Shown: positions 1,402-38,888, counted from the whole stretch's first letter. The stretch is DNA of 63,922 nt, filler included, from Licmophora abbreviata (GCA_900291995.1; 15 parts of 15 records of this genome joined end to end with filler, not necessarily neighbours in it); one strand, 5' to 3'. Numbers and translations are program-made. Notes: generated by a model from the sequence alone, not told the origin.

Positions 1402-1710
1402 GTACCGGTACGGCAATGATATCGACGAAATAGACAGCAGAATAGCGATTGCCGTATGACGTGCAACTCACTCGCACGGGATATTCGCTATAATATCCGG
1501 GGTAACTAGCGAGGTACTCAATCTTTTGTATAGGCTGCATACGACTGTATTGGTATGTGTGTTTGTTGAGGGTCGCATTCCCACTACGAATCATTGTCTC
1601 TCATGAGGTGCGACACCGTACATGGTACTCAATCTAGTGAGTACCAGGTATCATACCAGGTACAAGATAGCGCTATTAGTCCAACACTTTTGAACTCGTA
1701 CAGTAGCTAG

Positions 1711-4700
1711 CTACTGGACCCACGTTTGTAGTTCGGCCTTGGTAAACGCTTCCGGTTGGGTGACGGAGCGAGTCTCACAGAGCGGGGCAAGCGACTGGCA
1801 ACCCTGTCTTGAAAAGACTAGAATGAGACAGTTCTCAGTCTGCGAATGGAATCCAGCTTCGCAGTACGTCAAATAGTAGTTCCAAACACGAAGAAAGACA
1901 TCGTCAAAGCCCAGCTCTCTCACAAAGGATTCGCTCGCGTTGAACCTCCGGCGCCATTCGGCCAGAGTCCGCGCGTAGTGCAAGCCAATGTTATCGATGT
2001 GTTCCAACGTCAGACACGACTGCCGGTACGCTGCATCGACGAGCGCATGCAGTGACGGACAGCACGACCCGGGGAAGATGATTGTGTTGATAAAGTCGGT
2101 CGAGCGACGGTAGGTCTCGTAGCGTTGTTCTGGTGTGGTGATGGCCTCCATGCACAGAATTCCATCGTGGGCGAGAACTTGCTCGACCGCCCAGAAGAAC
2201 TCTCCCAGGTGCTCGTGTCCTACCGCCTCGATCATTTCACAACTCAAAACGCGGTCAAACGTTCCCTGGTTTTCATTGCGCCGAGCGAACGTTCGATAGT
2301 CGACCACCTCGAACGTGATCAAGTCCTGCACTCCTTCACGTCTCACGCGCTCTTCCGCGAGGGCCTTTTGCTCCACTGAGAGAGTGATGCCTGTCACCTT
2401 GCAGCCGTACTTTTTGGCCGCATACAAGGACAGACCGCCCCATCCAAAGCCAATGTCGAGCATGGTTTGGCCGGGTTGGATCTGAGCACGATCGAGCAAT
2501 GTGTCCAGCTTGCGCCACTGAGCTTCTTCAAGAGTACCACGAAAGATGAGGCCACTTCTACCATCGGGTGCCTTGATACCATCATAAATCGCCGATGAGT
2601 ACATTAGGGTTTCCGTGTCCAAGAATGTCGTAAACAAGTCGTTTGACAAGTCATAGTGAGCATGAATATTCTTCAAACTGCCTCCGCGTTCCGAGTTGTC
2701 CATCGTTAACTTGTAGCGAAGAAAGTTCAGAAGCGACCCAATCCGGGAAATGACAAGACCCGACGCATTCGTCATGGCGTTGGAGTACCCGTGGCCTCGT
2801 CCGGCACGGCGAGGTAAATGATTCTCAGGACTATCACGATTGCCAATCAGCAACATGAAAAGCCGCATCAGTCCAACAGGATCCCCGAGAACGACTGTCG
2901 TCTCATCACGCGCGTCCGGCGGACGAATCACGGGGTCGTATTTGGACGGATCATCCAAGGACTCAACAACAAAATATCCCGCCATGTAAGATCTGTAGGG
3001 AAAACGACACGCACAGGTGAATACATCTTGTCATGCTGTTAGGATAGACACTCACGCTCATCTCTGAGTAAGCAAATATACCTCGCAAGTCCCAAATCGT
3101 ACTCCAGCGCTGTCTTGACAAAGAACCACGGATCAAAGACTCGCAATGTTACGGGACTCGCATCGCACCCGCACTCACTACCATCGCCAAAGCCAACGAC
3201 GGATCCATCATTGAACTTCAATTCCAAACGTCCCCTTTTCACAGCATACGACATGAACTTGTAGATGAAACGTCTGCAGACAGCGACCGGGAGATCGTAC
3301 ATGAGTTTCTGATACGCGTACTGGTACAGTCCACCCCAATAAGATTGGCGAGGTTTCACGAGAGTCATATCGGGCGGAGCCAACACCATCATGGCATTAT
3401 CACCCTCGCCTGTTCCGGCCCACGGCAACGGTACTCCCGACAATTGCGTCGCGACCTCAAAGCCACTACGACAACCGTCCTCGTGGAAGCCATATCCACC
3501 CCACGCACCGCAAAACCATAAACCGTCTTTGCCTTGGTTGTCAGCGTTGAGGAGCGTCTTGCGGGCAGTTAAGGTTTCCGCCGTAAATTGAGGATGAGCC
3601 AAAGTCAGGCGCTGGTAGGTGAGGGAAGGTGCGGGTGTTTCATGAGGATTCAACGAAACGAAAATGTCATTTGGCGTCTCGAGGTTCTGCAATCGATTCA
3701 GCCAGTACGTCACATAGACAGCCTTCATCCGTTGTTGGGGCTCCTCGATCTTGCCGCTGCTGTTCCCATTCGGTTCGGCCCTGCTACCAAATCCCGATTC
3801 CGCGCCCTCAAAGGCCTCGCCCTTTTTGACCGATTTGGTGGTTCCACTCATTGTTCGTTCAATCAAGTCACTCTTTCCCAGACAGTTCCACGACGCCCAC
3901 GCACGCTTGCGAAGCGGCATTAATTTTGGATCCGAGTGTACATAGATGGTATTGTCCGAATATTCAATCGATTCGAGTGCTACCCTTCGAGCGTCATCAT
4001 CATCATCATTGGTCGATGACAAGACTGTATCCAACAACCTCAAGGTGGTGGGTGGATGACACGCAAAGACAACATGATCAAAACGTTCCCACCGACTTGC
4101 GATTTGTCGTAAAGAGTTCGTACTTTTTGGTCTTGCCATTGCGAACGATATCCACAATGGGAGTCGACACATGCGCATTGTTGCCCAAGACCTCTTGCAT
4201 CTTGAGTGTGTACGACTGGGAACGACCCTTGACGGTCTTCCACTGTGCAAGCAAAAGAAGAAAGAATGGAAATAAAGAGTGGGTCATTGAGTCAGCAATA
4301 CGAGAGCTACAAGCAACGACGCCAATCCCTTATACACCAGATCACTGTGTATCATACAGTAATATCAGCACTTACAGTCGGCCGATCCATCAATTGCAAC
4401 ATTTTGTGATTGCACAAGAACCCGACAAGCTCTTGTGCTGGAAATTCCATGACTTCCTCCATACTAGCACTCCACAGTGCCGCCATCATGGGGAGCAGAT
4501 AGTACTTGCAAAAGGCGGACGAATAACCGTGGGAGCGTAGATAGTGCGCAATGCTCACATGCCTCCTGGGATCGTCCGGATGCAAGCGGAGCAGTTCACT
4601 CGCATGTTGGTTGAATCGCATCATGTCCCACACGTAGGTATAAAAGGAAGGTTCGACTATCTGTTTCCGCCTCGCCAACAAACCGTTCAACCCATCGCTG

Positions 4701-5041
4701 CTCCACTCAATCCCCTCCCCCTGATCCAAACTGACACTGAGACTCATGTCCGAGTCTTCACTTTCCACTTGCAGTTCACGGAACCATGCGGTCATGTTGG
4801 GATAATTGTGATCATTGTAGACCATGAAACCGATGTCGACATCCACGACGCCATCGACTTTGGGGAGAGTGTAAGCGTGGCCGCCGAGGCGGGCTTGTTG
4901 TTCAAAGACGTGCACGTCGCAGTCGGCGGTATTCGTGTGCAAGTGCCAGGCGGCCGCGAGGCCACTGACTCCGGCCCCGACCACTGCGACCTTCTTTTGT
5001 TCTTCCTGCTCATCGGAGGGAGTAGTCTTAATCGAATTCAT
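1711..5041 (-). CDS. Fused FAD-dependent oxidoreductase (flavin amine-oxidase/COG2907-like) + cyclopropane-fatty-acyl-phospholipid synthase family SAM methyltransferase, ~1035 aa
   Basis: Exons 5041-4376, 4242-3082 and 2992-1711 with GT-AG introns 4375-4243 and 3081-2993; one extra T in a T-run at ~4080-4083 joins SVGTF to DHVVFACH. N-domain motifs: VAVVGAGVSGLAAA, RLGGHAYT, VDIGFMVYNDHNYPN, TYWLNRLQN, WFCGAWGGYGFHEDG. C-domain motifs: NIHAHYDLSNDLF, MYSSA, LDIGFGWGG, GITLSVEQ, SCEMIEAVG, IFPGS, HYARTLAEWR, YLTYCEAGF. Confidence 0.93.
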
Positions 5042-5197
5042 TGCAAAGGAAGGAGAAGAGGGAGGTTCTTGAGAAAGATCGACGGCGACAGAAATCTAGT
5101 TGTGGCCGTTCCAAATTTTGGTTCGCAGTTTGGCGGGAAATGCTGGAGTACTGAATTTTGTGTAGGACCCCACACAGTACAAAATTCACGTAGGAAA

Positions 5198-5213
5198 TGA
5201 CGTACATACGTCA
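5198..5213. promoter_or_regulatory. Inverted TGACGT pair (TGACGTA-CA-TACGTCA) at the centre of a 330-bp bidirectional promoter
   Basis: Perfect 7-bp inverted repeat with a 2-nt spacer, ~165 bp from each divergent ATG (5041 and 5372). TGACGT is a bZIP/CRE core. Confidence 0.45.
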
Positions 5214-5371
5214 GAGTGATGGCTTGCCAGCACCTTCGCGCCAAGCAAGCGACTTGGAACATCTGGATCTTCTTCAGTCTGACTTGTCGTTGTCGACGTT
5301 GTCGTCGTCCTCTGGATCGTTCCTAGAACATCCATATCATACAGAGAGTTCACACAATCATCAGTAAGACA

Positions 5372-7579
5372 ATGTGTCATACGTCTTCGAAAGAAAAGGC
5401 AGCGGCAGCCACCATGACGACGACGAAGAAAACAGAGGAACCTACGGATGGCGTCACGCCGCCTTCTTCCGATTTGTCAAATCATTCTATGCTTTCTCTC
5501 TTGTCGGGTTGGAACTTGCTAGTCTTGCTTTGGTTTTCACTCTGCACCATGCTGGTATCACGGCAGATGGAACTGATCCATGTCTTTTTTGGATTCTGTG
5601 GATGCTTTGGACTCAGCGGGTGCATGCGTCGCATCATGATGAGGCATGATCGTTCTCCAAACAAGAGTTCGAGTACAACAACAACAACCAGTAGTAGTAT
5701 AGGTATCCCGGAAGGAGTCGGCCTGGTGGCTTGTGTCATGGCACTCTACGTGTTGGTGGTCCACCAGCAACCCTTTCAGGCACTGTCATTCGCCACTGGC
5801 TACTTGGCCTTTCATTTGTGGTATCTCTGTCTCTTTGGTGAAAGTGTACCCCAAACAACAACAACAACAAAATATGGCTCGATGCCATGACCCTGACGGC
5901 CTTTGTAGTGGTCTTGTCGCACTATAAGGATTGGCTGATGTGGACGGAACATGGGGACGATGGGACTAGTACTACTGCTCATACAGGTGGCAACTACTAC
6001 TGTGTCGGTGGATGGATTGTGTACAGGCTACTCATGCTCTTGCGGACGACAAGGTCGGGTGTGGGGCAAGTCACTCAAACGAGCTCGATGAAAAGGAAGA
6101 GCCACTTGAAACAAACGAAACACGGGAATTGTGTCGATCCATCGTTGTTGTGGACGGTGCATGGAGTCTCCTACGATCTACGAACCTTTGTCCCTCATCA
6201 TCCCGGTGGAACGGAAGCCATTCTGCTGGGTCAGGGACGCGACTGTACTGCTCTGTTTGAAAGTTACCATCCCTTTACAAAACAACACGAAGTGTTGTTG
6301 AATAAATATCGACGACAGCAACAACAAAAGAGTAATGACAAGCGCAGCGATGATGATGATGATGATGTGCCAGAATACCGCAACAAGAAGATGCCTTTTA
6401 CAATTTGCTCAAAAAAAGAGTATCGGACGTACTGGAACAGCAACACGGCATGGATCCCATCGTGGATCGAAGTGCACCACCCATGAGAGTCGCGTATTAT
6501 TGCTTGATTGGAGTCTGTCTCATGATCAGCTTTGTCTACCATGTCAAGGTAAGTGTGTGTCGATAGTTAGTTGAGTCTGCTTTGTTCTGGTTGCATTTAG
6601 AGTCGAGTCGCTCAAATTTTGACATTCTCCTCTACTGCACACTATGCTCCAGGGATCCATGCTGGGTTCCTTCTTTCTGGCCATCTTTGGTTGGCTCATT
6701 GGCGCCTTGGGACATGACGCGGGTCATTTCGCAGCCAGTCGGATCCCCTGGGTCAATGACGTTTGCGTATGGGCCATGTCCTTTTTGTGCAATCCCATGA
6801 TGTGGCAACACCAGCACACTTACGCCCATCACTCGCATACGAACGAATTCGAACACGATCCCGACCTGCATCACTTTGATTTGCTTCTGAGGGTGCATCG
6901 GCGATTTTACAAGAAGGATCTGTACAAACTTCAATCCCGCGTCGTATTTGTAGTCTTGGCTTACTCGCTGGTGGTCGTGGGAACGTGTGTTTGGATTCCA
7001 TTGGGGATGATGCAGAGTGGATCCCTGTATGGATTGGCGGAATGGACGGATCGGAAGCGACCGTGGCGAGCAATTAGCATGGTGGGACACTGGATAGTGT
7101 ATATTGGAGTGATACTGGTGTTGCCCTTCTTTACCAACTCGTCGTGGTACAAGGCCTCTGGAATGCTGCACATGGCCACGTCGGGATTGCTCTTTGCCGT
7201 TTTCTCGCAAATCAATCACTTGAACGAAGCCTCGTTGGAACTCAAGAGAAACAAGCGCAAGTCGATTGCCATTGTCTCTTGGGCAGCAGATCAAGTGGAA
7301 ACCTCCAACAACTTTGCTTCGCAAAGTCGACTGTGGCATATTCTATCGAATGGGTTAAATCTACAGATTGAACACCACCTGTTTCCAGGACTGAACCATA
7401 GTCATTTGCACCTGATTGCACCGGTGGTACGAGAGACGTGTGAAGAGTATGGTGTATTGTACAAAAGCTACGAATCCTGGAAGGACTTGATGGGAGCTAC
7501 CCTGCAGTGGCTCGACACGCTCAGTGAAGCGCCATCGGTGCACTGCAAAGAGACGGATGAGATTCTGAAGAATCGATGA
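5372..7579 (+). CDS. Cytochrome b5-fused front-end fatty acid desaturase (Delta5-like) with a long hydrophobic N-terminal extension
   Basis: Cyt b5 motif FVPHHPGG..AILLGQGRDCTALFESYH, linker EDAFYNLLKKRV, His boxes HDAGH, HQHTYAHHSHTN and QIEHHLFP. Intron 6549-6652 (GTAAGT..CAG). Needs a frameshift at ~6366-6390, and a second at ~5850-5870 to include 5372-5886, which could instead be a separate ORF. Confidence 0.88.
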
Positions 7580-7984
7580 GAAAGTTTGCTGCTGCCTCTT
7601 AGTTTTTTTGCAGTAGGCTACTTCCATGTACATACCACAAGAAATAGATGTGGATTAGAGACGTTAGCCGAAGAACTAGAGTACGTACCAGACGAAAAAG
7701 ACGATAACTCTCTCGCCTTGTTCGAAACGACGAGTTTTCCCGGATGTAGAGTTCTACGTGGAGGGAGTAGCAGTGACGCATTGACTTGGTCTGGCCGTAT
7801 GTACAACGCACGTGAGAGGTGCGTGTGTGCCAAGGCCACAGAAAAGAACATCAGCCGTGACGACGACAAGCACTGCCTTGTTTCGCTTGCTTCTCCATAC
7901 TTGGCTAACTTTGTTGACCAATCTGTCGTCTCTACATTCTAGCTTGTAGTCTAGTTTGAGCTGATCGAGCAGACAGTCGCAGAA

Positions 7985-9661
7985 ATGAGATCGCAATGGC
8001 TACCCAGTAGCAACATGAATCCACTGCGGAGGATCTCCCTGTTGTCGCTAGTTTTCCTGCTTTCTACCGCTGCTACCACATCGGCTCTGGTTCTCAAGAC
8101 CCCTGCAGCCTTTGTTCCAAGAAACAATCTAGGAGAGTCATCCACACGATCATCGCAATCTTTGCTTCGCATGTCCAGTGCATCATCGAAACAGACCACC
8201 AAGAACAAGAATGCTCCCCCTTCATCACAGCTCGAATATGACGCCGGTCGCATTCGAAACTTTAGCATTATTGCTCACATTGATCACGGAAAGTCCACCC
8301 TCGGTACGAGAATAAAGATTCTGCATTGTGAACGTCGTGCAAGCTCGGTTCCATCATGATCACTCACCGCCTTGGTTCTGTTGCTTCTCTATGTGTCTCT
8401 ATATGTGTTTGTAGCCGACCGCCTGTTGGAAACGACAGAAACGGTCGCCTCCCGCGATATGGAAGCTCAGTTGCTGGACAATATGGACATCGAGCGAGAG
8501 CGTGGTATTACAATCAAGTTACAAGCGGCGCGTGTCTTGTATCAGAGCAAAGTGGACGGAGAGGTGTACACACTCAATTTGATTGACACTCCGGGTCACG
8601 TCGATTTTTCCTATGAAGTGAGTCGATCGCTGGCGGCCTGTGAGGGAGCGCTCTTGGTGGTGGATGCGTCGCAGGGTATAGAGGCGCAGACACTGGCGAA
8701 TGTCTATCTGGCACTTGAAAATGATCTCGAGATTATTCCCGTCTTGAACAAGATTGACTTGCCAGCCGCGGAACCGGATCGAGTGGCGGAAGAGATTGAA
8801 ACGACGATTGGGTTGGACTGTACGGATGTCGTCCATGCGTCCGCCAAGTCGGGGATAGGCATTGATGATATTCTAGAGCGGATTGTAGAGAAGGTTCCGC
8901 CGCCTTTGGCGGCGACGGGAGGGCCCTTTCGGGCGTTGATTTTTGATTCGTATTATGATGCCTATCGAGGAGTGATTGTCTTCTTTCGCGTTGTCGATGG
9001 ACAAGTGAAGAAGGGCGATAAAGTAAGATTCATGGCATCGGCGGCGGAGCATGAAGTGACAGAGGTGGGAGTCAGTAAGTAGTGTATCTTATGGAGAGCT
9101 GAATGGGCGGATGCACTAGTGCTCGTGATGCTGCGGCTCACCTTGGGTGTTCTTGTCTTTTGACAACCTGTAGTGACGCCCACGCAGGTGCCTGTGGAAA
9201 CGTTGCGAGCAGGAGAGGTCGGCTACATGGTAGGAAGCATAAAGGATGTGCTAGATGCCAGGGTGGGAGATACCATTTCTCTGTCAAGTGAGTACAAGGC
9301 AGCCAGCGGAGAGATTGAGCCACTGCCCGGCTATGCTGATAGTGTGCCGATGGTGTACTGCGGACTGTTCCCGGTCGATGCCGATGATTACGAAGGATTG
9401 CGTGATAGTTTGGGAAAGTTGCGATTGAACGATGCCGCCCTGACATATGAGCCTGAGTCATCGGGATGCTATGGGGTTTGGCTTCCGATGCGGGTTCTTG
9501 GGGCTGTTGCATATGGAAATTGTCCAGGAGCGACTGCAACGAGAGTATGGCATTGATCTTATCGTGACTGCGCCGAGTGTCGTTTACAAGGTTGAGAATA
9601 AAAATTCTGACAAGGAGCTTGTGGTCGATGCGCCCAGTAAGATGCCAGACATTGGACGAGA
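7985..9661 (+). CDS. lepA: Plastid-targeted translation factor LepA/EF4 (GUF1 family), 3'-truncated by gap
   Basis: Motifs [66 protein letters not shown]. Introns 8304-8414 and 9075-9173; extra G at ~9463-9465. N-terminal signal peptide ending TSA-LV followed by a Ser/Arg-rich transit peptide. Confidence 0.95.
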
Positions 9662-9761
9662 NNNNNNNNNNNNNNNNNNNNNNNNNNNNNNNNNNNNNNN
9701 NNNNNTTAATTAATTAANNNNNNNNNNNNNNNNNNNNNNNNNNNNNNNNNNNNNNNNNNNN

Positions 9762-12700
9762 TTTCATTTCCTCGAGAAGTTTCTTGTAATCGACGTTCGG
9801 TCTCCCTCGTTTGCGAGACGGTTCTTCCACTGCGGCCACTGCCGCATCGAGATGCTCGTTCTCATTCAAGGGGGCCTTCAATAACGCGTCCATTTCGGCC
9901 TTGTCAGAGCTAGGCACTTCAACTGCCTCTCGTGCCAAGCGGAGGCGCGCAAGACGCAGTCGCTCCGCCTTTTGCTGGCGCTTTCGCTCACGATCTTCTA
10001 CCACGTGACGTTCGAACTGACTCTCCCATTCGCTATCCTCTGGGTCATACAGTTCTCGACTGCTCCCTCCGTCCACGAGCGCGCGAACGTGACTTGCGGC
10101 ACTTCGGGCAAAAGGAGAGACGATGCCGCCATGAATCTTGTAGCCACCTTCCAAAACAGAAATGATGCGACCTTCGCAACATGTGTTGGCAATTTTTACG
10201 AGCTGCTCTGTGACCCACTCATAATCTTCTTCCACCATGCCCACATAGCCGAAGTTCATTGTATCTCGTTTGTGGCCATCAAAGCCAGCACTAATGAAAA
10301 TCAAGTCTGGATCGAATTCACGCAAGTGCGGAAGAATTTTCTTACGATAAGTATCCCTCAGCTCAAGTCGTTGCATGCCAGGAATCGCATCTGGTTGCGG
10401 CAAACCCAGGCCACAATTGATAATCTTGCAGCAGTTGGCCTTGGAATCTTCACCCATGCGTGTCCACGATTGAGACAAGATGAAGTCTTGCACACTTGGC
10501 GTTTCGACCAGCGACGGGTTCAGGATGGCGTCAGATGTGTGCGTTCTTCCAGACGCGGGATAGAACCAGCTCTGTTGAGGCTGCACGTCACCGTACTCTA
10601 TGCCTCTGGAGCCATAGCCATGCGTACTAGCAAAAAAGACGTCATTGACATCTGTTTCGTCTAACCATGGACGATACTTTGAAGAAGATAGCTCTCCCGT
10701 CGCAAAAGGAGTTCGAATCACTGCTTTCTCAACCGTCGGTACCAACTGCCGGATGACTTCTTCCGTACCATTGCCGTGATGGACGTCAAAATCGACAATG
10801 GCGATCTTCCGAATGCCTTCATTTCGGTACATACAGCGAGCGTACGCGGCACCAATGGCAACGTTGTTCAGTAAGCAGAATCCATGGGAGCCACCCTCTG
10901 GATCGTTCGCACAGCGCACAATTCCACGGGGACCTGCGTGATGTCCTGGAGGCCGGACAGCGCAGAACGAATTCCGGATATCCGGAGACATCATGACTTT
11001 GTCTACGGAGTCGCATACGCTTCCTGCTGCTCTAAGGGCCGACTCGAAGGACCAGCGCGATACTGCTGTGTCAGCGTCCAAGTGAGCGATTGCTGATGGG
11101 TGGTCCGGGATTGCTGAGCACATGCGGCTGATACTTTCGATATAATTGTATTCATGAACCTGACGTACAAGTGGGTAAAACAAGAGATTTTGTCTGTAAG
11201 ACAACGCACGATGCCATTCTCAAAGAGACAGCGAATGATACCCACCTTCAGAATATCGCTCATTGCAGCTCGCCGCGCTTCCCCTTCCCACAGGAGTCTC
11301 CCGAATTCGCCAGTTCTTAAAATTCCATCGTCGTCGTTGATCAATACATGCAGCCGGCCAACGTTCTCAGGAGGCGCTTCAGGCGAATCTCTCCGGATCG
11401 GCGGACAGGTGCGGTGGCTCATACAAAGTTCGTGGCACATGAGCAGCGTGGAACCGTCTGGGTCCAAAATAAGGTCTCTGGCGGGAAAACTTGGAGTAGA
11501 AGCACCAAGTAAGCTGAGAAGATCAGCGGGGACCGGCATTCCTCTTTTGTGAGCAAGTTGCCCAGGTGCCACCCCTCGACGATCCTTGACCTGAGGGTTC
11601 GCATCAGCTCGGAGCAAGACGCGGACGACCGGCCAGTTTCCTCGAGAACAAGCCACATGTAAAGGAGTCTGTCCCAGCACATTGGGTGAGTCAATCTCAA
11701 TCCCCGGAGCCCCCACGAGTATCTGCGTAACCGCTGCAGTCATTGAATCCCCCGTTAGCGCCGGGGGTCCACTTTGACCGCCTGACGACACATCTCCCCC
11801 AGCGTCGCTCCCTGAGTGAACACTAGGCATGTGATGGCCGGAGTGGACGATTGTGCCGTCTGGATGGTGATGACCAACCGTAGGACGCAAGTGTTCGTCT
11901 GCCTTCGAAGGACTTGCAGACAAGGGGACGTCGAACTTTGCCGCAGTGTGAAGAGCCCTGCCACCATGACGGTCACACCTTGAATTCAGCGTAGATCTAC
12001 CAGCATCGCTTGAAAGAACATAGCTCACAACTTGCGGAAGGTTCATCATGCACGCAAGCGACAGGGGTGTGTGGAGCGATTCATCCTTCACAGTGATGTC
12101 GGCTTCATACTCCATCAGCACCTGGACACATTCCAGCGCGAAATCGGCATGGGCGGGCACACCACCTACGCTGATGGCGGTATGGAGCGGCGAGCTCCCA
12201 TCGCTCTTCCGATGTGGAGAAGCACCAGCCATCAGAAGGAGCTTAACGTGCTCTAGCTTCCGATTGTGGATGGCAACATGCAAGGCAGTGTTCTCGACCC
12301 CATCTCGTTCATTGATATCGTAGGGACAGTAGTAAGTAGTTTCTTTTTCCTTTCTGGCTGCAACCTCGACTTGTTCTGATGCCTGGTGTGCCTCGCCTTC
12401 AAATACACCACTAGGTGTGTCCGCACTGCCAGGCTCTACTGTCGCATCCTCGCTAGTGTCCATCGGAGCCGCAGCTTGATCATCCTCCGAAGTGACAGCC
12501 GCAGCATCCTTGGATGGAGAGGACTCCTTGGGTCTAATTGGATCTTCGCTCTCTTTCCCAAGGGATGAATCAGCAACAACCTCTCCAGGCTTGCTTGTGT
12601 CCCCATCCGTCTCTAGAGGTGGAGGAGGCATTCCGGCCAGTCCGAAAGCCGCCTCGGCGGTGGCCCCGACCCCATCAAATATTGCCCTTGGTACGCCAGG

Positions 12701-13135
12701 CGACTGACCGGTTGCCGCCGCATGTGCGGCTGCTGTCGAATCGTTGTCGTCCGTTGACGAGTTATCGCCATTAGACCCCGTAGAGGAGTTGTCATCGTCT
12801 GAATCATCTTGAGGAACAAAGATAAGCCTCTGTCGGTGGCGCGGCGCGGCATGCAAAATGTGAGCAAAACAGTCTCGAAAGGGAAGCACAACCGGTCGAC
12901 GGCAGGGCACGGCATGGGTGGAACCCGGAACTTCCCGATCATGGCGGCGCAAAGATCCGTCTCAAAAGCCCGATTCTCCGCCGATTTTCAACTGACAAAG
13001 CCCATAACTTACCCTCAGAGCTTCCGCGTCCTCGAATTCACAACAGTCGTGAACTGGATACCTCTTTGATCCAACATTGGCCGACTCAAACTGGAACTCA
13101 TCATCGTCGGAGGAAGACGCCGCAGCCACAGACAT
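9762..13135 (-). CDS. Ankyrin-repeat histone deacetylase (class II-like), 3'-truncated by gap
   Basis: ATG at 13135; introns 13012-12830 and 11245-11160. Ankyrin motifs TALHVA, SPLHTA, TPLSLA, RALHTA, TPLHVA. HDAC motifs RPPGHHA, GFC, DFDVHHGNGT, ISAGFD, LEGGY. Confidence 0.92.
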
Positions 13136-13777
13136 CCTGAGGTGCTCCTTTGTATTTCTTCAGTAGAATTCTACACGGGACGACTCAAACCGGGATAAAG
13201 ATGGCTAAATATTTCGCAAAAGCACTCTGGTTTCAGGAATGGGAGCGATCTGATTGGTCCAGAAAAGTCGCCTTCATCCCGCGAGCTCGCCCCGAAATTA
13301 TGAGCAAAACCGGAGATAAAAATGTGCAATGAGTCTTGTACAGCGGAATTAGTACTCTTCTACGACCGTATTTTCCACGAGTGATGTACCACATGTAGAA
13401 TCAACATCGGTTTCTACCGGGATTTGAATTCAGTATTCTTTCTACGTAGATGTCCTCATAGCCTGCCACGTGGCACAACTCGCAGTTCGCGAGACACGTT
13501 CTGGAGATTCGTTAAAACGCGCGAGCTCCTCTTCGATTTGAATTCTCGTTTGCGCCAAAAAAAGAGTGGCACACACCGCGAAACGCCGGCCTCCGAGAAA
13601 CTGTGAGACCTGACACCCTTCAGTTCTTGTTGCCACATCAGACTGATTTCTAAGCCCCGTCTCAGTCTTTACTATCAGTTTATCTCTCAATTTACAAACT
13701 TCTGCAAGTTGCTTGGCCGCTCGTGGCGATTGACCGACAAAGAACGGTATCGAAAACCTGATTTCTCGATTTCAACC

Positions 13778-16700
13778 ATGCCGACGCCTCGCATCAGCAA
13801 AATCACGACGCCTCGGAAGTCATCAGCTCGAAAGCCTTCGGGAACACCTCGAAAAGAGGCGACTCCGACTGCACGAAAGTCTTCTGTGACGCCACGAAAA
13901 GCGACAACTCCTACGCGGCCTCCCCGTGCCACGCCGAGGCGATCCACGACAGCGACGTCTAAGGTCGTTCGTTCCCCTGTTCGAGGTGCTAGTCCGCGCA
14001 AGGCAACCCCAACAGCTCATGTGGAACCTGTTCCCAATGACAATGGCGAGGAAGGAATCGTTGGTAAGCTTTCGCTTCGGGTGTGATGAGGCGTGAACAT
14101 GAGCTACACAAAATAATGAGATATCGAGACTCACATGTCCACTCTTCTTTTCTTCCCTCATCGCAGTCGCCATTCGCATGCGCCCATTGAATTCGAAAGA
14201 GTCAACCAGCGAAAGTGCTACGTCGGATGTCGCGAATCGCGTGTGGCGTGTCCTCCCGCAGTACAACTCTGTCACCCAGACAACTAACACGGGCCAGCCA
14301 TTGCCGGAGCGTGTCACGGGACGCACGTTCTTCTCGTTCGACCGTACGTTTGGAGAGGATGCGACCACGCAGAATGTGTACGATGGCGTCGCCAAAAACA
14401 TCGTACAGAGCGCCGTGACAGGTCTCAACGGAACGATCTTTGCTTACGGACAAACATCAAGTGGAAAGACCTATACTATGCAAGGATCGGGATCGATTGA
14501 TGAAGGCCGTCGTGTCGGTGGAGGTGGCGTTGTGCACATGGCGGCGACCGATATCTTTGGTCATATTCACAACACGCCTAATCGAATCTTTTTGGTTCGT
14601 ACTTCATTCATGGAAATATACAATGAGGAAGTGAGGGATTTGCTAGGAGGTAACGCGGTTCTGCAAATTCGTGAAGACCCCCGTAAAGGTGTCTTTGTGA
14701 ACGCTGCTGAGGAGATCGTGACGGACTTTGAGAGTCTTCTTCGAATTCTGTTTGCCGGGGAGAAGAATCGTGCGGTGGCGGCCACGGGTATGAACGAACG
14801 CTCGTCGCGCTCGCATACGATCTTTCGAATTACGATCGAGAGCCGTCATAAATCGGAGGCAAGCGAGGATTCGCCGTCGGATGACGGTGCCGTTCTGATT
14901 TCGACTCTAAACTTGGTGGACTTGGCCGGCTCTGAGAGTGTGCGTCATACCGGAGCCACAGGAGATCGCCAAAAAGAAGGGGCCAAGATCAATCAGAGGT
15001 GAGGAACAGGGCACTGTGGCTCGCAATCGATCTGCAGCTCCAAGCGACACCGCCTTCGAACACTCACTCATGTCTTTGCTTCTTGCCGACACACAGTCTA
15101 TTGACTTTATCTCGTGTCATTGTCGGTCTCGGGCAGCAAAATCAAGCACATATCAACTTTCGTGATTCCAAGTTAACCCGCATTCTCCAGCCTTCGCTCT
15201 CTGGAAACGCACGCATGGCCGTCGTCTGCTGCGCCACTCCATCCGAACTTTATTTGGAAGAGACGCGGTCCACACTCCTATTTGCATCCCGTGCTAAGCT
15301 TGTTAAGACTAAAGCTCAAGTCAATGAAGTACTTGATGAGCGCTCCATGATCAAGCGATTGCAGCGCGAGCTTGCAGAAGCACGGCGTCACAGTGTCGGT
15401 ACTGGGCAGATCGAACAAATGAAAACACTAGAGAGCGAAGCCACGAAAGCTGGAAATGCGGTCAAAGAAGCTGAAAGCAAGCTGCAACGGCTCAAGTCGT
15501 CACTATTGAATAGCTCTGTACTCTTCGGCGCTTCTCACATTGATCTGATACCAGGTGCGAATGACCCCGCTTCGAAGTGGAGCCTTCGCTCCAAGAAGCG
15601 CCGCCTGTCGGACGGACACATCCATGTTGACCGAAGCGGCATGCTAACACCGCTTAAGGAGAATGTGGACATTGCCTCTCCCCAAAGTCTTCGCCAGCCG
15701 ATCAAAAGTGAGCGTGCTGGACAAATTCATGCTCATCTCTCTCCCAACACTGAGCTTGCGCTTGTCCGCACTGCTTACGACTCTAAAGTGGGGCATACGA
15801 AGACTCTCCAGGGTATTATCGCTGAACTTGAGCAGAAGCTTACAGTCGAGATCAATGAGAAGGAAAATCTTGAGCACGCTGTTGAAACTCTGAAACACGC
15901 AAAGGAAGATTCTCAGAAATCAATTGAGGACCTAGAATATGAGAAGTCTGGTTTGCTGGATCGCGTCGAGAGCCTTTCCGGCGAGCGTGTGCGTGGTGCG
16001 TTTGACCTCGCTCAGTCGAACAGCGAGCGAGAGCGTCTCGCTAAAAGCTTGTCAGAAAATAAGAGAGAAACACAGCAGATGTCGGAAGACATCAGTCTAT
16101 TGAAGGCGACACTCAGAGATGCTATTGAAGAGAAGAACCAGATCGCGGAGCAGCTGAGCGAGACTAGGTCGACTCTAGAAGATGTTTCCGCTCAAAAGGC
16201 AAGAGCCGATCAGCAACTCGCTTCATTGACTGAATCCCTGTCAACACATAAGGATGAGCTGGCATCAGCTCTCTCTGCAAACGAAGATCTTGCTAGTAAG
16301 AATGGGAGCCTAGAAGCTGAAGCTGCCAGTATCTTGGCGGAGCTCGAAAACTCCCGGGCGACCATTGTCGAGCTGACGTCAACGTGCAACGAGCAGAACG
16401 AATCTATCCAAAAGCTTGAAGAAAACGCCGAGGAGGCGCAGACGATTCATTGCTCCAATATGGAGATGGTCACGAAGCAAAAGGAATTAGTTGTCCGCCT
16501 GGAAGATACAATTCAGCAACTGTCAACAGAGAATGAAGCCTCCGCGCAGCAAGTCCACGATTTTTCCGACAGGATAAGAGAATTGGAAGACTCTATTCAA
16601 GTTTCAGAACGCAACCTTTCTGAGACCGCCTCAGAACTGGACGATAAGAAGGCAGAGTTTACTGCGCAGGTGAAGTCCTGTAATGTGGCGACAGCCGCGC

Positions 16701-19613
16701 TCGAGGCAACTGAGCAGCGACTCAACGAAGCAAAATCGACGATAGAGGACCTTGTCAAAGACAATGAAGACAAGGAATCCAGGATCACAACCATGTCGTC
16801 CCATCTCGACGACATGATTAACCGTTTCGTTGATATGGAATCGAGCAAATGCGAAGTGGAGGAGATGATTGGAGAGTCTACTGCCGAACTGCAGCGCATC
16901 TTGGTAGAAAAGTGTAGGATCTCCGAGGAGCTCCAGGAACAGGCCGAGAAATTATCGATTGTTGCGGAACAGCGAGACACAACACAGGAGGCGTTGGAGA
17001 AGTCAGAAGCCAACAAAATGAACCTGAACGGTGTTATTGAAGAGCTGGAAGTTGAAAAGGAGGAATTGAAGTCTCGCGTCGAAGTCCTTCTCAAGGAGAA
17101 AAGTAGAGCAGCAGTGGATCTGGAGGACTTCCGAGCTGGGAAGGCCACGGTGGATGCACAGCTTGCGGATGCTACTGCTAGAGTTGAGGAGGTCTGCGCC
17201 GATAAGCTGCGTATGGTTGACCAACTTCAGGATCGACAATGCATCATTGATGCTCTTTCTCTCGAGCGCGAAGAGGCACAATCTTCACTGTCTTTCGCCA
17301 AATCACAAATTGAAGAGCACAGAGCTGCACAGCAACGTCTGGAGGAAGAGAAGACCGACCTCGTCAAGCGACTGGAATCAGAAGCAACAAGAGAAGAAGA
17401 AAAGCAACAAGCGCAGCTTATCGATCTTACAACCGAATGTTTCGAACTCAAACAGCTTTTGACGGATGCAAACCGCGCAGTCACACAAGCTCGACAGGAA
17501 GCCCAATCTTCGTCTATTGAACTACAACACAAATCTCAGAGTCTCGAAGCTTCCATTGGTCACCAGAAAGAACTCGAGAGCGAGCTCCATGCGGCTTCTC
17601 AAAGAGTTGCTTCCCTTGAAAGTCAAGGAAAAGAGGGCAAGGACGGAGAACTTGCAGAAGAGCTGGAAGCGTTGATGACGGAGAAATTGAATGTCGAAGC
17701 ACGCTTGCACGAGGAAATTTCTCGGCGGGAAGATTCCGAAGCCGAACTTCGACGACTTGCTGGCGAGGAGCAGAGAGCTCTTGTCCTAGAGGCAGAGAGC
17801 ACAATGAACGCACTTCGAAGTGAGGCCGCCCGTCTACAAGAGGCAGCTTCACAAGCCGAGGCGGATGTGTACGCAGCTCGACAGGAAAACGAAGAGCTTC
17901 AAGATCTGAACCGGCGCTTGGAAGACAAGGCACTAGAGTCTGAAGTCCTCAGGGAGACAGAGAAGGTTCTGAAGGGCAAGCTATCAACTCTTTCAGAAAG
18001 TAACTGCCAATTGCAGAGGGAACTCGAGCTCGAACGAAAAGCATCGAGCTTTGATGACAACCACGACGAAGAAATAGCTACGGTCAAGGCAGAGCTGAGT
18101 CGAGTGAAGGCAGAGAGCTATGCATCGACACAGGAAGCTCAAGATCTGAGAGCGGAGCTCCAACAGAATCGCTTCGAAACAGAGGCGGCGGCGAAAGAAT
18201 TCAGACTGAGCAGAGAACAATTTGCGGCTGCACTTTCGTCGCTCGAGAATGAGAATCGCGAATTGCTTAGTCAGATTCGATCTTTGGAAGTCAATGGAAA
18301 AGAAAACGTTTTGAGCACAGACGAAGTAGGAAAACTCCAACAGCAGGTAGAACAGTTGTCCTCCGAGCTCAAGAGGAGAGAAGCCCGTATCCAAAAACTG
18401 AATGCGACGAAGCTCACGAAGGATCAATGTGCAGCTTTGAAAAAGATAAAGGTAAAATTGCTCAATGGTCTGGTTTCGCAAGCGTGTTCGACCAATATTG
18501 GCTCACCTTCCGTGTCTTATGTGCTCTTGTTTGTTTCAGGATGAACGAGTCAAGTTTTCCAAGGATGCGAACGAGTATCGCATCAAATTGAACGAAGCCC
18601 AAAAACAAATTGCTATGCTGACATCTCAGCTCTCCCAAAATTCGGCCTCCTCCGAGACAGGGGATGCTTCTCTCAAGTTTGAAAAGGAAGCTCTGGAAAC
18701 GAAATTTCGCAAGTATGCTGCCCATTGCCAGCGTCTAGAAAGCGAGAAAGCAATGATGAAGGATGCGCTTGAGTCCGTCCAGGGGTTCCATGTGCAGCAC
18801 GGGGATGTCACTGGCGCCGTGGTTGCCATGTGCGACAAGATCAGCTCACTCGAAGAGGAGTGCGAAGCACTCTCAAACGCGGAGAGTAAGGCTTCATCCT
18901 TTCTGAGCGAGTTGGACCGACTTCGCGAGGAAAACGCCTCCCTTCACGAATCCATGGCCAAGTCCGAGACGAGACTTGCGGATCTTATGGGATCTGGAGT
19001 CACCCTCGAATCAAAACTGAATGAGACTGCTGAGAAGATGAACAGCCTACGCCATGAGCGGGACCATTTCAAAACCATTGCCGAGTCGGCGCAAGGCAAC
19101 GTTGAAAACCTCGAGAACGAGAAGGGTCGTCAGGTTCGGTACCTCGAACAAGAGAATCTTCAGCTCATGCTTGATCTCAAGAATGCAAAGAAACAGATCC
19201 AAAGTACAAGAAAGCAGCTGGACTCAATGCGCCTGAAAGTCACGGATGATGACACTGTCGATTTCGGCACCATACCGATCGCTCCCTTGGCCTTGCCTAA
19301 CCATGCGTCTGGTGAAGTCAACCCAGCCGTGTCCAGCGATACGCCGGGTGGAGTCAATGATGAGTTCTCAACTGGTTGGATGAGACCTGAAAATCCCGTT
19401 GACGATAAGGAAAACCAACCTGCGGAAATCCGGCTCAATGGGGTATCAGGTAGCGCTTCTAGATCCGAATCCACAGGTAAACGAAGACTTCCTCGCATTC
19501 CTCGCTCTGCCAAGAAGAAACTCCGAAACATTGCCACGCCTGGTCGCGCCGTCGGTCTTGGGGAAGCGGGCGACGACGGCAACGAGAATACTACCGAATG
19601 CAAGCAGAGTTGA
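13778..19613 (+). CDS. Kinesin-7/CENP-E-like motor protein with long coiled coil
   Basis: ATG at 13778; introns 14064-14166, 14999-15096 and 18452-18539. Motifs VAIRMRPL, FAYGQTSSGKT, NERSSRSH, LVDLAGSE, INQSLLTL, FRDSKLTRILQPSL, ETRSTLLFASRAK, then a >1000-aa coiled coil. Confidence 0.93.
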
Positions 19614-20154
19614 GTGAAAGAGTCCGAGTGGGCCATTCATGTAGATTGTGAGTGCAATAGATTTGTCGTTCCAACGATTCAACATTCCGGTAACAGATCT
19701 GGTCATCCTCTGGAAACGTTTCAGAGGTAGGTCCAACAGACTTTGTAGCGGGACTGGGACTGCTCGCCTTTGCTGGGTCACTTTCTGTTTACTTTCATGT
19801 CACGCTCAGATAACAAGCAAAACGAATCATACATTAAAAACGCAATTACTAGTAATCATAAACTTTGTTCCCGATACATAGTTTCCCGGCTGCAGTCCAC
19901 AAATAGCGCTGGGTCTGATATAATGGTAGCAAAAACAGGAGGTGAAGAATTCGGCTCTCTGCTCATAAGCTCTGTCCAAAGCAAAATGCATTCGTAATTT
20001 TGCGCCATGCTTGAGGACGAAGAATCGTTCGGGTGTTAAGAAATACATCGCTCGTCCATAGAGACAACATACGTGCTGCTGAACTTGTCGGAATTGAACG
20101 TTGCGCCTCCGACCACGAGCTTAGGATCGGAGCCGTCCACTTTCGAATGACAAA

Positions 20155-21086
20155 CTAGCTTCCGCACCCCGTCATCCACTTGCTCCAAAGGGTCATAGTC
20201 CATCCAATAGTTATNNNNNNNNNNNNNNNNNNNNNNNNNNNNNNNNNNNNNNNNNNNNTTAATTAATTAANNNNNNNNNNNNNNNNNNNNNNNNNNNNNN
20301 NNNNNNNNNNNNNNCCTTGTTGTTTGCAGTCTTGCTCGTATCGATAGGCAACCTCGTAAAAGTCCAATCGTAATCGTACGTCATTTCCATAAAGGGGCTG
20401 ACATGAAACGTCTTGGGAAAGACGTAGTTGATCGACGACGCTGTAGGTCGAACCGATGTGACATCCACACTTGACTCGTGCAAGACATAACACTGCATTT
20501 CATTCCACGGCGTATTACTGACTTCGGCCACAATGGCACACGGTGCCGTTTTCTTCTTCTCAAAGACGTAATAAAAACTGACGGGATTGAAGCAGTAGCC
20601 AAAGTAGCACAGGTGCGTCAACAAGACGACGCGATGTGTGTCGAGCGTGGATCGGAAACTATGCTTCGTTCGTTCTTGTACCAACTGGAGCGTGCGCTGG
20701 GCCAACTGGCGCTCTGAAAGCGCGGTTGAATTCCCCTTACTTTGCAGTCCCTCACCATTCTTGTAGTGATCGCGTGGACGCAGTGACATGACTATAGAGA
20801 GTGGCCATAGTTTTTTCGATCGAACGCTTCCAAACCACAACTCGTCGGCTTCTGTATTGAGTTCCACGGCCATCCAAAAGAAGGGATAGGCAAACGAGTG
20901 CACCGCTGGATGATACCGTGTATGAGAGACTCGTCCCACATAAAGAGCCGAGTAAAGCTTGTGGTCGTTTTCGTCGTTGTTCCTCCTCCATCGAAGCCAA
21001 GTCAGTGCTGCCAACGCCAGAGTGACACCGCAGACGAGCAGAGGCACTGAAATCAAGGCCAGTGCCGGGTACAAAAGGACATTCAT
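20155..21086 (-). CDS. DUF1365 family protein (UfaO-like) with N-terminal membrane anchor, interrupted by gap 20215-20314
   Basis: Motifs SALYVGRVSHTRYHPAVHSFAY, LLTHLCYFGYCFNPVSFYY, AEVSNTPWNE, PKTFHVSPFM. The frame ITIGWTMTLWSKWMTGCGS* (20214-20155) beyond the gap is a tentative C-terminus. Confidence 0.92.
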
Positions 21087-37566: not shown

Positions 37567-38888
37567 CTATGATATCTTGACGACTTTGAGCAGTCCGAGC
37601 GCAAAATGATCGAAGTTCCCTCCCACTATCCAATCACCCGAATACCAATGGCTTACTGGGAGCGCCGTCAAGACGACCAAGGTCGACACAATAGGCCGTG
37701 GCAGCCTCTGGACGAGCCATTGAAAACCTGGCAAGCGGCCAAGTGGTCTTTCCAACAACATGGTGAGACCACAATACAGAAAGAAAGCTGTCTGTTTGAA
37801 CAAGATTGGAAAGAAACAGTTCACGCAACCGGCTTCAATCGTTCGACGTTGGTGAAAGAAGATTAGGGTCCACGAGTAGTCGTGCAGGATTCCCGAGGCG
37901 ACAAAGCACACAATTACCGCAATCGGAGTCGAAAAGTATTTTCTGGTGGGAAGAAATGCGCCTCTTTTGAGAGTCCCATGAATGACCAGATTCCACCTTT
38001 TGGACCAGAATTGGCTTGGACAGTCCGACGTGAAAAGTGGGTTCCGAAAAACCTCCTTCGTCACCCAACCCTGTGCATTCTGACCGAAAGCCGTCAGACT
38101 GAACCCAACAGACAATGTCAAATACGTAAGGACTACAGTACAGAAAGAAGCGAAAAGAGTTTAGGCACGCATTCACTCCTCGATAGATTGCCAAAGAGTA
38201 AAATTCTCAACGTACCAGCCGCCAAATAGTTGTTCGCGAGTTGCCCAGGATAGAGAAGCTCAGGCGTCACATGAAACTCATTCAGCACGACCTTCGATTC
38301 AAAAGGCTTGAAGTTGTAGGCCATAAGGTAGCTCAGAAGCAATGAAACCATGAGAAATTGAACGACAATGCGCCATATGTTCACCAACATCTGTCTCGTA
38401 GTAATTTTGAGCCGCTTGTTTGTCTTTTCATCCCACTCAAACTCGATGAGCGACGAGCAATAGGCAGCGTAATGACCGATCGACGTCTCAACTGAGCTCG
38501 GTGAAGTTCCATGCATGGCCTCGATGCAGCGAAAGACAATCACCGTCGGTAAGGTCCCGGCGCTCAACTTGAGAGTGCGGTTTTGGAGGTCAAAGTATTC
38601 GAGCAGGGGATACGGTATCCACATGACGATCGGGATGATGAAGCCATATCCGAGCAGGTAAGCACCTAAAGATCCTCGATGCTTGATAATGTTATTGTAC
38701 ATGATAGTTGAGAACGCGCACATGAGGACTGTCTGCAAAGCAAGGAGGTAAAGGAGGTGGTTCCAAAACTGCATTTTGGGCGCCAACACTCCGAACGTGC
38801 CCTCCACTCCAGGAATCTCCAATGTCATAAACGGCTCGCGGTCATCGTCGACCAGCTTGTCCGCAAACAGATCTTGAAGGAAGGCCAT
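37567..38888 (-). CDS. Membrane-bound O-acyltransferase (MBOAT_2/wax-synthase-like)
   Basis: Intron 38215-38133. Motifs NPLFTSDCPSQFWSKRWN and FVASGILHD; multiple TM segments. Confidence 0.85.

Follow-up and report, generated by a model that had tools for sequence, protein, structure and literature searches.

Results

A diatom counterpart of the bacterial ufaD-ufaO-ufaM genes

In a stretch of 63,922 nucleotides of Licmophora abbreviata DNA (the window; filler included, GCA_900291995.1) we find a gene encoding a flavin oxidase fused to a methyltransferase, a divergently transcribed cytochrome-b5 desaturase and a separate DUF1365 gene. Domain content and the gene order of the closest bacterial relatives indicate that the fusion and the DUF1365 gene are very probably orthologues of the bacterial ufaD-ufaO-ufaM module. 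The three diatom genes are loosely linked on one draft scaffold, and the initial annotation of them as a cluster is partly supported. The features are as follows.

1711..5041, minus strand: flavin amine-oxidase (UfaD-like)::CMAS methyltransferase (UfaM-like) fusion gene, ~1035 residues (Pfam, splice sites, collinear tblastn)
5041-4376, 4242-3082 and 2992-1711, minus strand: exons of the fusion, with the stop codon at 1711-1713 (read from the sequence)
4375-4243 and 3081-2993, minus strand: introns of the fusion, both GT..AG (splice sites read from the sequence)
4078..4085, minus strand: one-base frame break at a TTTT run in the second exon of the fusion (homologue alignment)
5042..5371, no strand: divergent intergenic region of 330 bp between fusion and desaturase (two start codons)
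5372..7579, plus strand: cytochrome-b5-fused membrane fatty-acid desaturase, front-end type (Pfam, tblastn, three-frame reading, His boxes)
6549-6652, plus strand: desaturase intron, GT..AG
near 5850-5900 and 6366-6390, plus strand: desaturase frame breaks (tblastn of seven diatom homologues, three-frame reading)
9662..9761, no strand: artificial scaffold linker, at which the 3' part of lepA and probably also that of the HDAC gene are missing
20215..20314, no strand: artificial scaffold linker cutting the DUF1365 gene and hiding at least 300 bp of coding sequence
20316..21086, minus strand: DUF1365 (UfaO-like) gene, 5' two thirds, ~256 codons (Pfam PF07103)

The fusion gene and its divergent desaturase

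The initial annotation placed a flavin oxidoreductase fused to a CFA-family methyltransferase at 1711-5041, and domains, introns and homologues all bear this out. Exon 1 matches NAD_binding_8 (E 1.3e-16) and Amino_oxidase (E 4.9e-11), exon 3 matches CMAS (PF02353, E 1.4e-71, 241 bits), and five full-length diatom fusions (949-1056 aa) are collinear in tblastn with all three parts of the gene. Among the matches listed, fused orthologues occur in many diatoms at 69-83% identity, and both Pfam sets occur together in single diatom proteins of 949-1138 aa; the source annotation of the listed diatom fusions is 'cyclopropane-fatty-acyl-phospholipid synthase'. An N-terminal FAD oxidase and a C-terminal CMAS domain on one polypeptide is also the oxidase::CPS architecture of the SfCPS/GhCPS/AT3G23510 family.

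The head-to-head b5 desaturase is likewise present, 330 bp from the fusion, with Cyt-b5 (E 1.1e-10) and FA_desaturase (E 1.2e-34) domains. Its N-terminal b5 domain carries HPGG and its His boxes read HDAGH, HTYAHH and QIEHH; a third box opening with Gln instead of His is the hallmark of front-end b5 desaturases. The intergenic region may act as a shared bidirectional promoter. The match lists of fusion and desaturase have in common four contigs of at least 5 kb of exactly equal size (84,180, 53,641, 5,786 and 5,306 bp, from four other assemblies), where 0.09 would be expected. Judged by this repeated co-location, the divergent desaturase is a conserved neighbour of the fusion in diatoms, which lends some support to its proposed membership of the set.

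Both genes carry frame breaks. At 4078..4085 the window needs a +1 shift where the homologues run unbroken (..GTF|DHVV..); because the homologues switch frame at 4081/4082 and there is no room for an intron, we interpret this as a one-base break. None of the metagenome contigs listed covers the site. With this break in the fusion, two in the desaturase and no read evidence correcting them, the breaks might be genuine and the two genes decaying pseudogenes in this strain. We consider this very improbable: outside the breaks the frames are long, stop-free and 70-83% identical to homologues, and two housekeeping genes nearby are broken alike. In lepA, GTP_EFTU profile positions 2-24 and 20-188 lie in adjacent frames at 8356/8360, and in the kinesin gene profile positions 1-257 and 257-326 lie in overlapping frames (14936-14999), in neither case with room for an intron. 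Single-base indels, at 5758 and 9466, also distinguish the window from independent metagenome contigs that are 99% identical to it. Because lepA and kinesin break in the same manner, the breaks in fusion and desaturase are probably assembly indels.

The DUF1365 gene

The DUF1365 fragment matches PF07103 with E 4.3e-45 and 154.6 bits (cut-off 25) over profile positions 1-162 of 235 only, and is 40-57% identical to at least 120 listed diatom and other proteins. In the columns covered it retains all nine invariant and all 18 near-invariant residues (conserved His/Arg/Glu/Tyr); the C-terminal third is absent from the fragment. An N-terminal hydrophobic anchor precedes the region matched by bacterial homologues. 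All six diatom homologues (360-404 aa) align only as far as their residues 249-298, and the ~100 residues at their C-terminus find no match in any part of the window. For this reason 20155-20214, which had been taken as part of the gene, is not supported as a DUF1365 piece; the 58-codon frame there has no Pfam match. The gene at 20316-21086 is real, and its last ~100 codons are absent from the window.

Relation to the bacterial Ufa proteins

In Cereibacter/Rhodobacter sphaeroides UfaD is RSP1091, UfaO is RSP1090 (the DUF1365 protein) and UfaM is RSP2144, as the initial annotation had stated, and furan fatty acids are still made there without the in-operon CMAS gene RSP1089; Rhodopseudomonas palustris RPA2571-2569 is a proven ufaD-ufaO-ufaM furan-fatty-acid operon (Lemke et al., 2020; PMC7380195). 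All three families, FAD amine-oxidase-like, CMAS and DUF1365, are present in the window by Pfam. Bacterial relatives of the CMAS domain are 34-47% identical, and in 33 of 38 metagenome loci whose upstream sequence extends for 2.6 kb or more they lie directly downstream of an amine oxidase and DUF1365 on the same strand. For DUF1365, the best 80 genome loci include 65 with both flanks, and every one has the order oxidase-DUF1365-CMAS; these come from species-representative genomes of Gammaproteobacteria, Nitrospira, Marinimicrobia, Planctomycetota and others. Neither R. palustris nor C. sphaeroides is among these 80, and the relation of the diatom proteins to the characterized reference proteins (UfaM Q3J4I7, RPA2569, UfaD Q3IYV7, UfaO Q3IYV8) is read via the operon-type relatives. 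Since the gene order of the closest relatives is that of the proven R. palustris operon, the homology reading is sound, and the predicted assignment of the three domains to the UfaD, UfaM and UfaO families holds.

The diatom genes resemble the R. palustris and R. sphaeroides Ufa genes in comprising the same three families, with the nearest bacterial relatives in the same order. They differ in that oxidase and methylase are fused, DUF1365 is separate and at least 15 kb away and has the extra N-terminal anchor, the genes contain introns, the immediately adjacent gene encodes a cytochrome-b5 desaturase, and identity to bacterial homologues is only 29-47%.

The CMAS domain and the likely product

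When scored against true CFA synthases, a check that the initial annotation had proposed, the CMAS domain falls short of all three NCBIfam equivalog cut-offs (NF053839, 210 of 600 bits; NF008686, 204 of 400; NF040703, 179 of 650). The window residues at E. coli C139, E239, H266, I268 and Y317 (checked on sequence L081) are S-E-E-I-Y, an incomplete version of the five-residue bicarbonate site. Diatom CMAS domains have Ser at C139 and Glu or Gln at H266; the Glu of the window at H266 is Gln in the operon-type bacterial proteins (68/68 and 75/75). E. coli Cfa (b1661) shares the CMAS fold family, the SAM-binding motif and a phospholipid-bound olefin substrate, with 33.5% identity over 284 residues, and the best solved-structure matches of the window domain are CFA synthases in the PDB. 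However, in the diatom this domain is joined to an oxidase and differs at H266 and C139, and on its scores and residues it is not a canonical Cfa.

The fusion could instead be a plant-type cyclopropane (or mid-chain methyl/methylene) synthase, whose oxidase domain merely enhances or further modifies the cyclopropane product; DUF1365 would then serve another reaction and no furan fatty acid would be made. The diatom proteins carry a cyclopropane-synthase annotation, and the available part of one report (PMC3132707) describes cotton GhCPS1/2 and Sterculia CPS (SfCPS), with the same two-domain architecture, as making dihydrosterculate in yeast and plants. According to that part, the E. coli ligands are replaced much as in the diatom domain (C139 by Ser, H266 by Gln/Glu): Ser stands at C139 in GhCPS1/2 and Gln at H266 in GhCPS1 and GhCPS3, with GhCPS2 listed as I729. 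The plant enzymes differ in that what they have been shown to form is a cyclopropane ring, they can do so without the oxidase domain (~30% activity is left after its deletion) and a DUF1365 partner is not discussed in the portion available (PMC3132707). In the same portion, neither GhCPS3 nor an Agrobacterium oxidase and CMAS pair yielded cyclopropane acids, and the authors detected none in either seeds or leaves of Arabidopsis, so cyclopropane synthesis is not general in the fusion subfamily. Because the cotton cyclopropane synthases share both residues and architecture with the diatom protein, neither allows the product to be called; compared at these positions, the Ser/Gln-Glu signature fails as a predictor. 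The bacterial three-gene module (65/65) and the proven R. palustris pathway also argue against a cyclopropane product, and suggest that oxidase and DUF1365 act on the methylase product. We know of no cyclopropane acids as a feature of diatom lipids. Overall, we consider a plant-type cyclopropane synthase unlikely.

Reasoning by analogy, we would give roughly even odds that the window holds a diatom version of the bacterial lipid-modification module acting in a furan-fatty-acid pathway, and the prospects that the diatom genes yield a furan fatty acid appear equally balanced. P. tricornutum is reported to contain furan fatty acids (Batna et al., 1993, as cited in the reference list of PMC6213525). 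By analogy with the bacterial pathway, from which we infer all the chemical steps, the CMAS domain would methylate a monoenoic acyl chain of a membrane phospholipid to give a methyl-branched trans-olefin, and the N-terminal oxidase domain, as an FAD-dependent acyl-chain desaturase, would then form a conjugated diene. The membrane-anchored, UfaO-like DUF1365 protein would insert oxygen in an O2-dependent step that closes the furan ring, and the product would be a furan fatty acid able to scavenge singlet oxygen. The cytochrome-b5 desaturase probably supplies or tailors the unsaturated substrate, and the enzymes would likewise be placed at the ER or lipid droplets.

How tight is the linkage?

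At least 15 kb separate the fusion from the DUF1365 gene. This interval holds two unverified linkers and three genes unrelated to the set (lepA, ankyrin-HDAC and kinesin), which had been named in the initial annotation and are confirmed by Pfam. All 14 N stretches in the window are one 100-bp construct, 44 N + TTAATTAATTAA + 44 N. The linkers are placeholders and not measured gaps, and do not give the real size; the two gaps noted earlier between fusion and DUF1365 are thus of unfixed size, as had been stated, but are artificial. We could trace no gene across 9662-9761 or 20215-20314. Pfam-backed continuity exists at one of the 14 linkers, 36638-36737, across which DnaJ runs on into DnaJ-X, so the scaffolding is not random.

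One reading of these data is that the genes serve one pathway without the cluster being a functional unit: only the desaturase-fusion pair would be a conserved neighbourhood, and the DUF1365 contig would be close by either as residual synteny or because scaffolds were joined arbitrarily or wrongly. The intervening genes and the untraceable linkers are consistent with this. Furthermore, five of six other eukaryote-like contigs with several kb of flank (L003, L004, L005, L007 and L009) lack a nearby DUF1365 gene, and the neighbours of the fusion vary by diatom lineage, being a CNMT/LIME-like methyltransferase in the Thalassiosirales-like contigs L003, L004 and L007 and the desaturase in the window. 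Several observations point the other way. In P. tricornutum the fusion and DUF1365 proteins have the same longest contig, a chromosome of 702,471 bp, a coincidence with a chance of ~3% in a genome of 27 Mb. One DUF1365 match and one desaturase match lie on contigs of equal size (8,616 bp; 0.05 expected). In another eukaryotic contig, L006, a DUF1365 gene of at least three exons is directly head-to-head with the fusion, and the DnaJ continuity speaks against arbitrary joins. We put the chances of the non-unit reading only a little short of even, and think it possible, though somewhat doubtful, that fusion, desaturase and DUF1365 form a functionally meaningful linkage group. The proposal of a one-locus cluster stands for the recurring desaturase-fusion pair but not as a tight arrangement. 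Synteny in other diatoms, which had been suggested as a check, is similarly divided: P. tricornutum has fusion and DUF1365 on the same chromosome, but among the listed matches of Nitzschia inconspicua the longest contigs differ for desaturase (5,376,619) and fusion (3,523,723).

Discussion

The initial annotation knew of no defined diatom gene set. A eukaryotic version has already been named in Arabidopsis: the fusion AT3G23510 is AtUFAMD1, the DUF1365 protein AT1G30130 is AtUFAO1 and LIME1/AtFUFM1 is AT4G33110, the first two named by homology (Omata et al., 2024; PMC10940516). There the furan-fatty-acid role is put forward on homology only and called putative, with localization to lipid droplets. 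The eukaryotic Ufa gene set is thus not new, as plants have already been the subject of the same argument from homology. The likeness to the diatom, which is drawn from the published description, is an oxidase::CMAS fusion with a separate DUF1365 protein (PMC10940516). In contrast, the AGI codes place the Arabidopsis genes on different chromosomes, and a LIME/FufM-like gene is absent from the window, yet lies beside the fusion in the Thalassiosirales-like contigs.

We speculate, with low confidence, that diatoms and other algae have retained their furan-fatty-acid genes as a cluster that is dispersed yet not random, descended from a bacterial ufaD-ufaO-ufaM operon. In this scheme, to be taken with the same reserve, the desaturase would share its bidirectional promoter with the fusion and make a specific monoene for methylation, and in Thalassiosirales the adjoining LIME/FufM-like methylase would add a second methyl group. 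To our knowledge, no eukaryotic furan-fatty-acid biosynthetic enzyme has been demonstrated. The candidate diatom set consists of the fusion, DUF1365, the conserved partner desaturase and, in some lineages, the LIME/FufM-like methylase. With this set defined, the biosynthesis question is directly open to knockout and heterologous expression; diatoms rank among the main primary producers of the sea, and Phaeodactylum is amenable to genetic work. Furan fatty acids, which animals presumably obtain from algae and plants, are strong scavengers of radicals and singlet oxygen. If the scheme is true, the dispersed algal cluster would be the long-sought primary biosynthetic source of marine F-acids, which build up along the food web as far as fish.

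Gene structure of the fusion and the desaturase

The oxidase-methyltransferase fusion, the neighbouring desaturase and the DUF1365 gene were delimited as follows.

Gene features in the window
1711-5041, minus strand: fusion of a UfaD-like flavin amine oxidase and a UfaM-like CMAS methyltransferase, ATG at 5041 and stop at 1711-1713 (three-frame reading)
5041-4376, 4242-3082 and 2992-1711, minus strand: fusion exons (three-frame reading and splice sites)
133 nt and 89 nt, minus strand: fusion introns, GT..AG (splice sites read in the sequence)
5372-7579, plus strand, opposite to the fusion: cytochrome-b5 desaturase gene (Pfam and three-frame reading)
20316-21086, minus strand: UfaO-like DUF1365 gene, starting at 21086 and entering a linker at 20315 after ∼256 codons (Pfam)

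Exon 1 of the fusion encodes a GxGxxG dinucleotide fold (Pfam NAD_binding_8, E 1.3e-16; Amino_oxidase, E 4.9e-11) and exon 3 a CMAS-family methyltransferase (PF02353, E 1.4e-71). All three parts are collinear with five full-length diatom proteins (949-1056 aa), relative to which the frame switches at 4081/4082, in a TTTT run, with no residue lost. Among the 120 matches listed there are fused proteins of ∼950-1140 aa with 69-83% identity to the CMAS exon; the named ones are all from diatoms (Phaeodactylum, Nitzschia, Mayamaea, Amphora, Conticribra, Thalassiosira and Cyclotella), and further ones carry MMETSP labels beginning 'Step', 'Detonu' and 'Skelet'. These relatives, with those of DUF1365 given below, show that the source is a diatom, in which group the oxidase-CMAS fusion is a standard gene.

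The desaturase is separated from the fusion by 330 bp and lies on the opposite strand. Its features are a cytochrome-b5 domain containing HPGG, the histidine boxes HDAGH, HTYAHH and QIEHH, a GT..AG intron (6549-6652) and two frame breaks (∼5850-5900 and 6366-6390). Its protein-atlas label is 'fatty acid desaturase' only.

A bacterial oxidase-DUF1365-CMAS module

A metagenome scan with the fusion alignment kept 80 loci, nine eukaryote-like and 71 bacterial-like. An amine oxidase and then DUF1365 lie directly upstream of CMAS, on the same strand, in 33 of the 38 bacterial loci that extend 2.6 kb or more beyond the start of CMAS; of the other five, L010 has oxidase and DUF1365 in another order and four are without both. 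Species-representative genomes were scanned independently, with an alignment of DUF1365; the best 80 loci are from members of the Gammaproteobacteria (Woeseiaceae, Lysobacterales), Nitrospira, Marinimicrobia, Planctomycetota and others, and the oxidase-DUF1365-CMAS order is present in every one of these that has both flanks (65/65). In Rhodobacter sphaeroides, according to the excerpts of Lemke et al. (PMC7380195), UfaD is RSP1091, UfaO is RSP1090 (a DUF1365 protein) and UfaM is RSP2144; RSP1089, the in-operon CMAS gene, is dispensable. The initial annotation had given these three identities, and they match that source. The diatom proteins are the predicted eukaryotic counterparts of the UfaD/UfaO/UfaM module.

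The CMAS subfamily and its product

The CMAS domain is 33.5% identical to Escherichia coli Cfa and scores far under the NCBIfam CFA-synthase equivalog cut-offs. The bicarbonate-site positions of Cfa (C139, E239, H266, I268 and Y317, confirmed on the E. coli K-12 gene) read S-E-E-I-Y in the window. The H266 position is Glu in 11 of 12 eukaryotic sequences, the exception being Mayamaea with Gln; Gln occupies it in 68/68 bacterial proteins from the metagenome loci (71 minus three short or reversed matches) and in 75/75 CMAS genes from the best 80 genome loci that passed the filters. Gln or Glu at this position marks an oxidase-associated subfamily without predicting the product. Its use as a sign of non-cyclopropane chemistry was ruled out, the replacement being found also in true cotton cyclopropane synthases (PMC3132707, in part).

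A plant-type cyclopropane synthase stays a live rival because cotton cyclopropane synthases carry the same residues. In the excerpts of PMC3132707, GhCPS1 and GhCPS3 have Gln at H266, GhCPS2 is given as I729, and GhCPS1/2 have Ser at the C139 position; cyclopropane acids are the products of GhCPS1/2 and of Sterculia CPS. GhCPS3 and an Agrobacterium oxidase-CMAS pair gave none, and none were detected in Arabidopsis seeds and leaves. We consider cyclopropane or another methyl-modified acid an unlikely product of the diatom enzymes, and the chances are about even that they would make furan fatty acids.

The DUF1365 gene

The DUF1365 fragment covers Pfam profile positions 1-162 of 235 (E 4.3e-45). 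All six diatom homologues compared (360-404 aa) align no further than their residues 249-298, and their conserved C-terminal part has no match anywhere in the window. The initial annotation had included 20155-20214, on the far side of the linker, in this gene; because the C-terminal part of all six homologues is without a match in the window, that piece apparently lies outside it. The linker (20215-20314) conceals 300 bp or more of DUF1365. Next to it, and like DUF1365 on the minus strand, there is a 58-codon open frame (20039-20212) without similarity to DUF1365 or to any Pfam family.

Relatives of the fragment among the matches listed are 285-448 aa long and 40-57% identical, and include proteins of Fistulifera, Seminavis, Phaeodactylum, Fragilaria and Amphora. 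A sequence-based search found no related solved structure. An alignment of 53 DUF1365 sequences (A2) has invariant or near-invariant His, Arg, Glu, Asn, Tyr and Lys columns common to the diatom and bacterial proteins (H65, R67, H73, Y77, E195, N198, E203, Y207, K232, H235 and Y246 in P0125 numbering). At these columns the uncharacterised UfaO fold may bind a metal or cofactor.

Linkage of the three genes

The observation in the initial annotation was partly borne out and its homology reading is sound; the putative physical cluster is loose and extends across two linkers. In the window 15 kb or more separates DUF1365 from the fusion, with lepA, an ankyrin-HDAC gene and a kinesin in between. Linkage has indirect support from P. 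tricornutum, in which the fusion and DUF1365 proteins have the same 702,471-bp longest contig, and the two genes are therefore on one chromosome. An intron-containing eukaryotic contig (L006, 2210-7070), whose fusion is 59-61% identical to diatom fusions, also speaks for it: DUF1365, in three or more exons, is head-to-head with the fusion gene. Against linkage, DUF1365 is absent near the fusion in five further eukaryote-like contigs that include several kb of flanking sequence. The linkage of DUF1365 is loose and may be a remnant.

Among listed matches with contigs of at least 5 kb, those of fusion and desaturase share four contig sizes exactly (84,180; 53,641; 5,786; 5,306) versus 0.09 expected from near-miss pairs, and those of DUF1365 and desaturase share one (8,616) versus 0.05. 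The desaturase match and the fusion of Nitzschia are on different contigs as listed, and no desaturase occurs in the 1.2 kb available upstream of the fusion in L005, a eukaryote-like locus. We read the desaturase-fusion pair as a conserved diatom neighbourhood.

A weak MBOAT_2 (membrane-bound O-acyltransferase) match at 37570-38160 (minus strand, E 1.3e-6), ∼16 kb past DUF1365, is the sole other lipid-related match in the window.

Neighbours in other diatom lineages

In the Detonula-like metagenome loci L003 and L004, the fusion has 84% identity to a 'Detonu...' MMETSP protein. In L003 (309-10573) five intronless genes lie on one strand: a b5-type desaturase, a 210-aa unknown, the fusion, a 425-aa methyltransferase and a second b5 desaturase. 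L004 has the same five, but its first desaturase is inverted. In the Skeletonema-like contig L007 (3-5901), with a fusion 93% identical to a 'Skelet...' protein, a methyltransferase of the 425-aa type is head-to-head with the fusion, ∼365 bp apart, and a homologue of the 210-aa gene lies downstream.

Among solved structures, the 425-aa methyltransferase matches best to coclaurine and pavine N-methyltransferases (204 and 196 bits), the family to which Arabidopsis LIME1 (AT4G33110) is usually assigned. LIME1 was matched to FufM by Omata et al. (PMC10940516). Ten bacterial loci have relatives of the L003 LIME-like protein (35-46% identity) within a few kb of the oxidase-DUF1365-CMAS operon, and these genes may encode a FufM-type second methylase. 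In the window there is no LIME/FufM-like methyltransferase gene.

Bacterial loci with a second CMAS-like methyltransferase (sequence match to the L003 protein)
L010, L020, L024, L026, L036, L038, L047, L055, L059, L071

Linkers and frame breaks

The window has 14 N blocks (9662 to 62852), all of them an identical 100-bp construct (44 N, TTAATTAATTAA, 44 N) between contigs of 1.0-12.3 kb; they are scaffold placeholders, and the real size need not be 100 bp. At linker 9662-9761 the lepA frame ends after EF-Tu domain 2, with the C-terminal domains absent, and the HDAC frame enters from the opposite side. Beyond linker 30130-30229 a kinase resumes at profile position 110, with nothing kinase-like before it, and at 62753-62852 RSN1_7TM has no continuation. 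The contig order at the two joins that matter is plausible but unproven, because Pfam-backed continuity spans only linker 36638-36737 (DnaJ before, DnaJ-X from profile position 47 after).

Both lepA (8356/8360) and the kinesin motor domain (14936-14999) likewise change frame where no intron would fit, with contiguous Pfam profile positions on the two sides of each break. The assembly thus seems to contain many single-base indel errors. Metagenome contigs with 99% identity or more to the window show single-base indels against it at 5758 and 9466; those aligned to 1600-9661 are 151-350 nt long and of low depth, and the ones listed miss 4081 and 6366-6390. Marine-metagenome DNA runs contain part of the window (share at most 0.24), and RNA runs are absent among the matches listed. 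We infer that the frame breaks are assembly indels, not gene decay.

Relation to published work

DUF1365 and pathway homologues in eukaryotes were pointed out by Lemke et al. (PMC7380195, in part). The Arabidopsis fusion and DUF1365 protein received the names AtUFAMD1 and AtUFAO1, on the basis of homology, from Omata et al. (2024; PMC10940516), who localised them to lipid droplets; a 2026 review still terms their role putative. The available part of a Chlamydomonas paper on singlet-oxygen signalling includes CFA2 and a PF07103 gene in its regulated-gene table, and furan fatty acids in P. tricornutum appear in the title of Batna et al. (1993), as cited in the accessible text of PMC6213525. [quoted passage not shown] In the main text of open full-text papers we found no paper describing diatom UfaM/UfaD/UfaO homologues or diatom DUF1365. 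The main additions made here are the conserved partner desaturase and the lineage-specific neighbours of the fusion.
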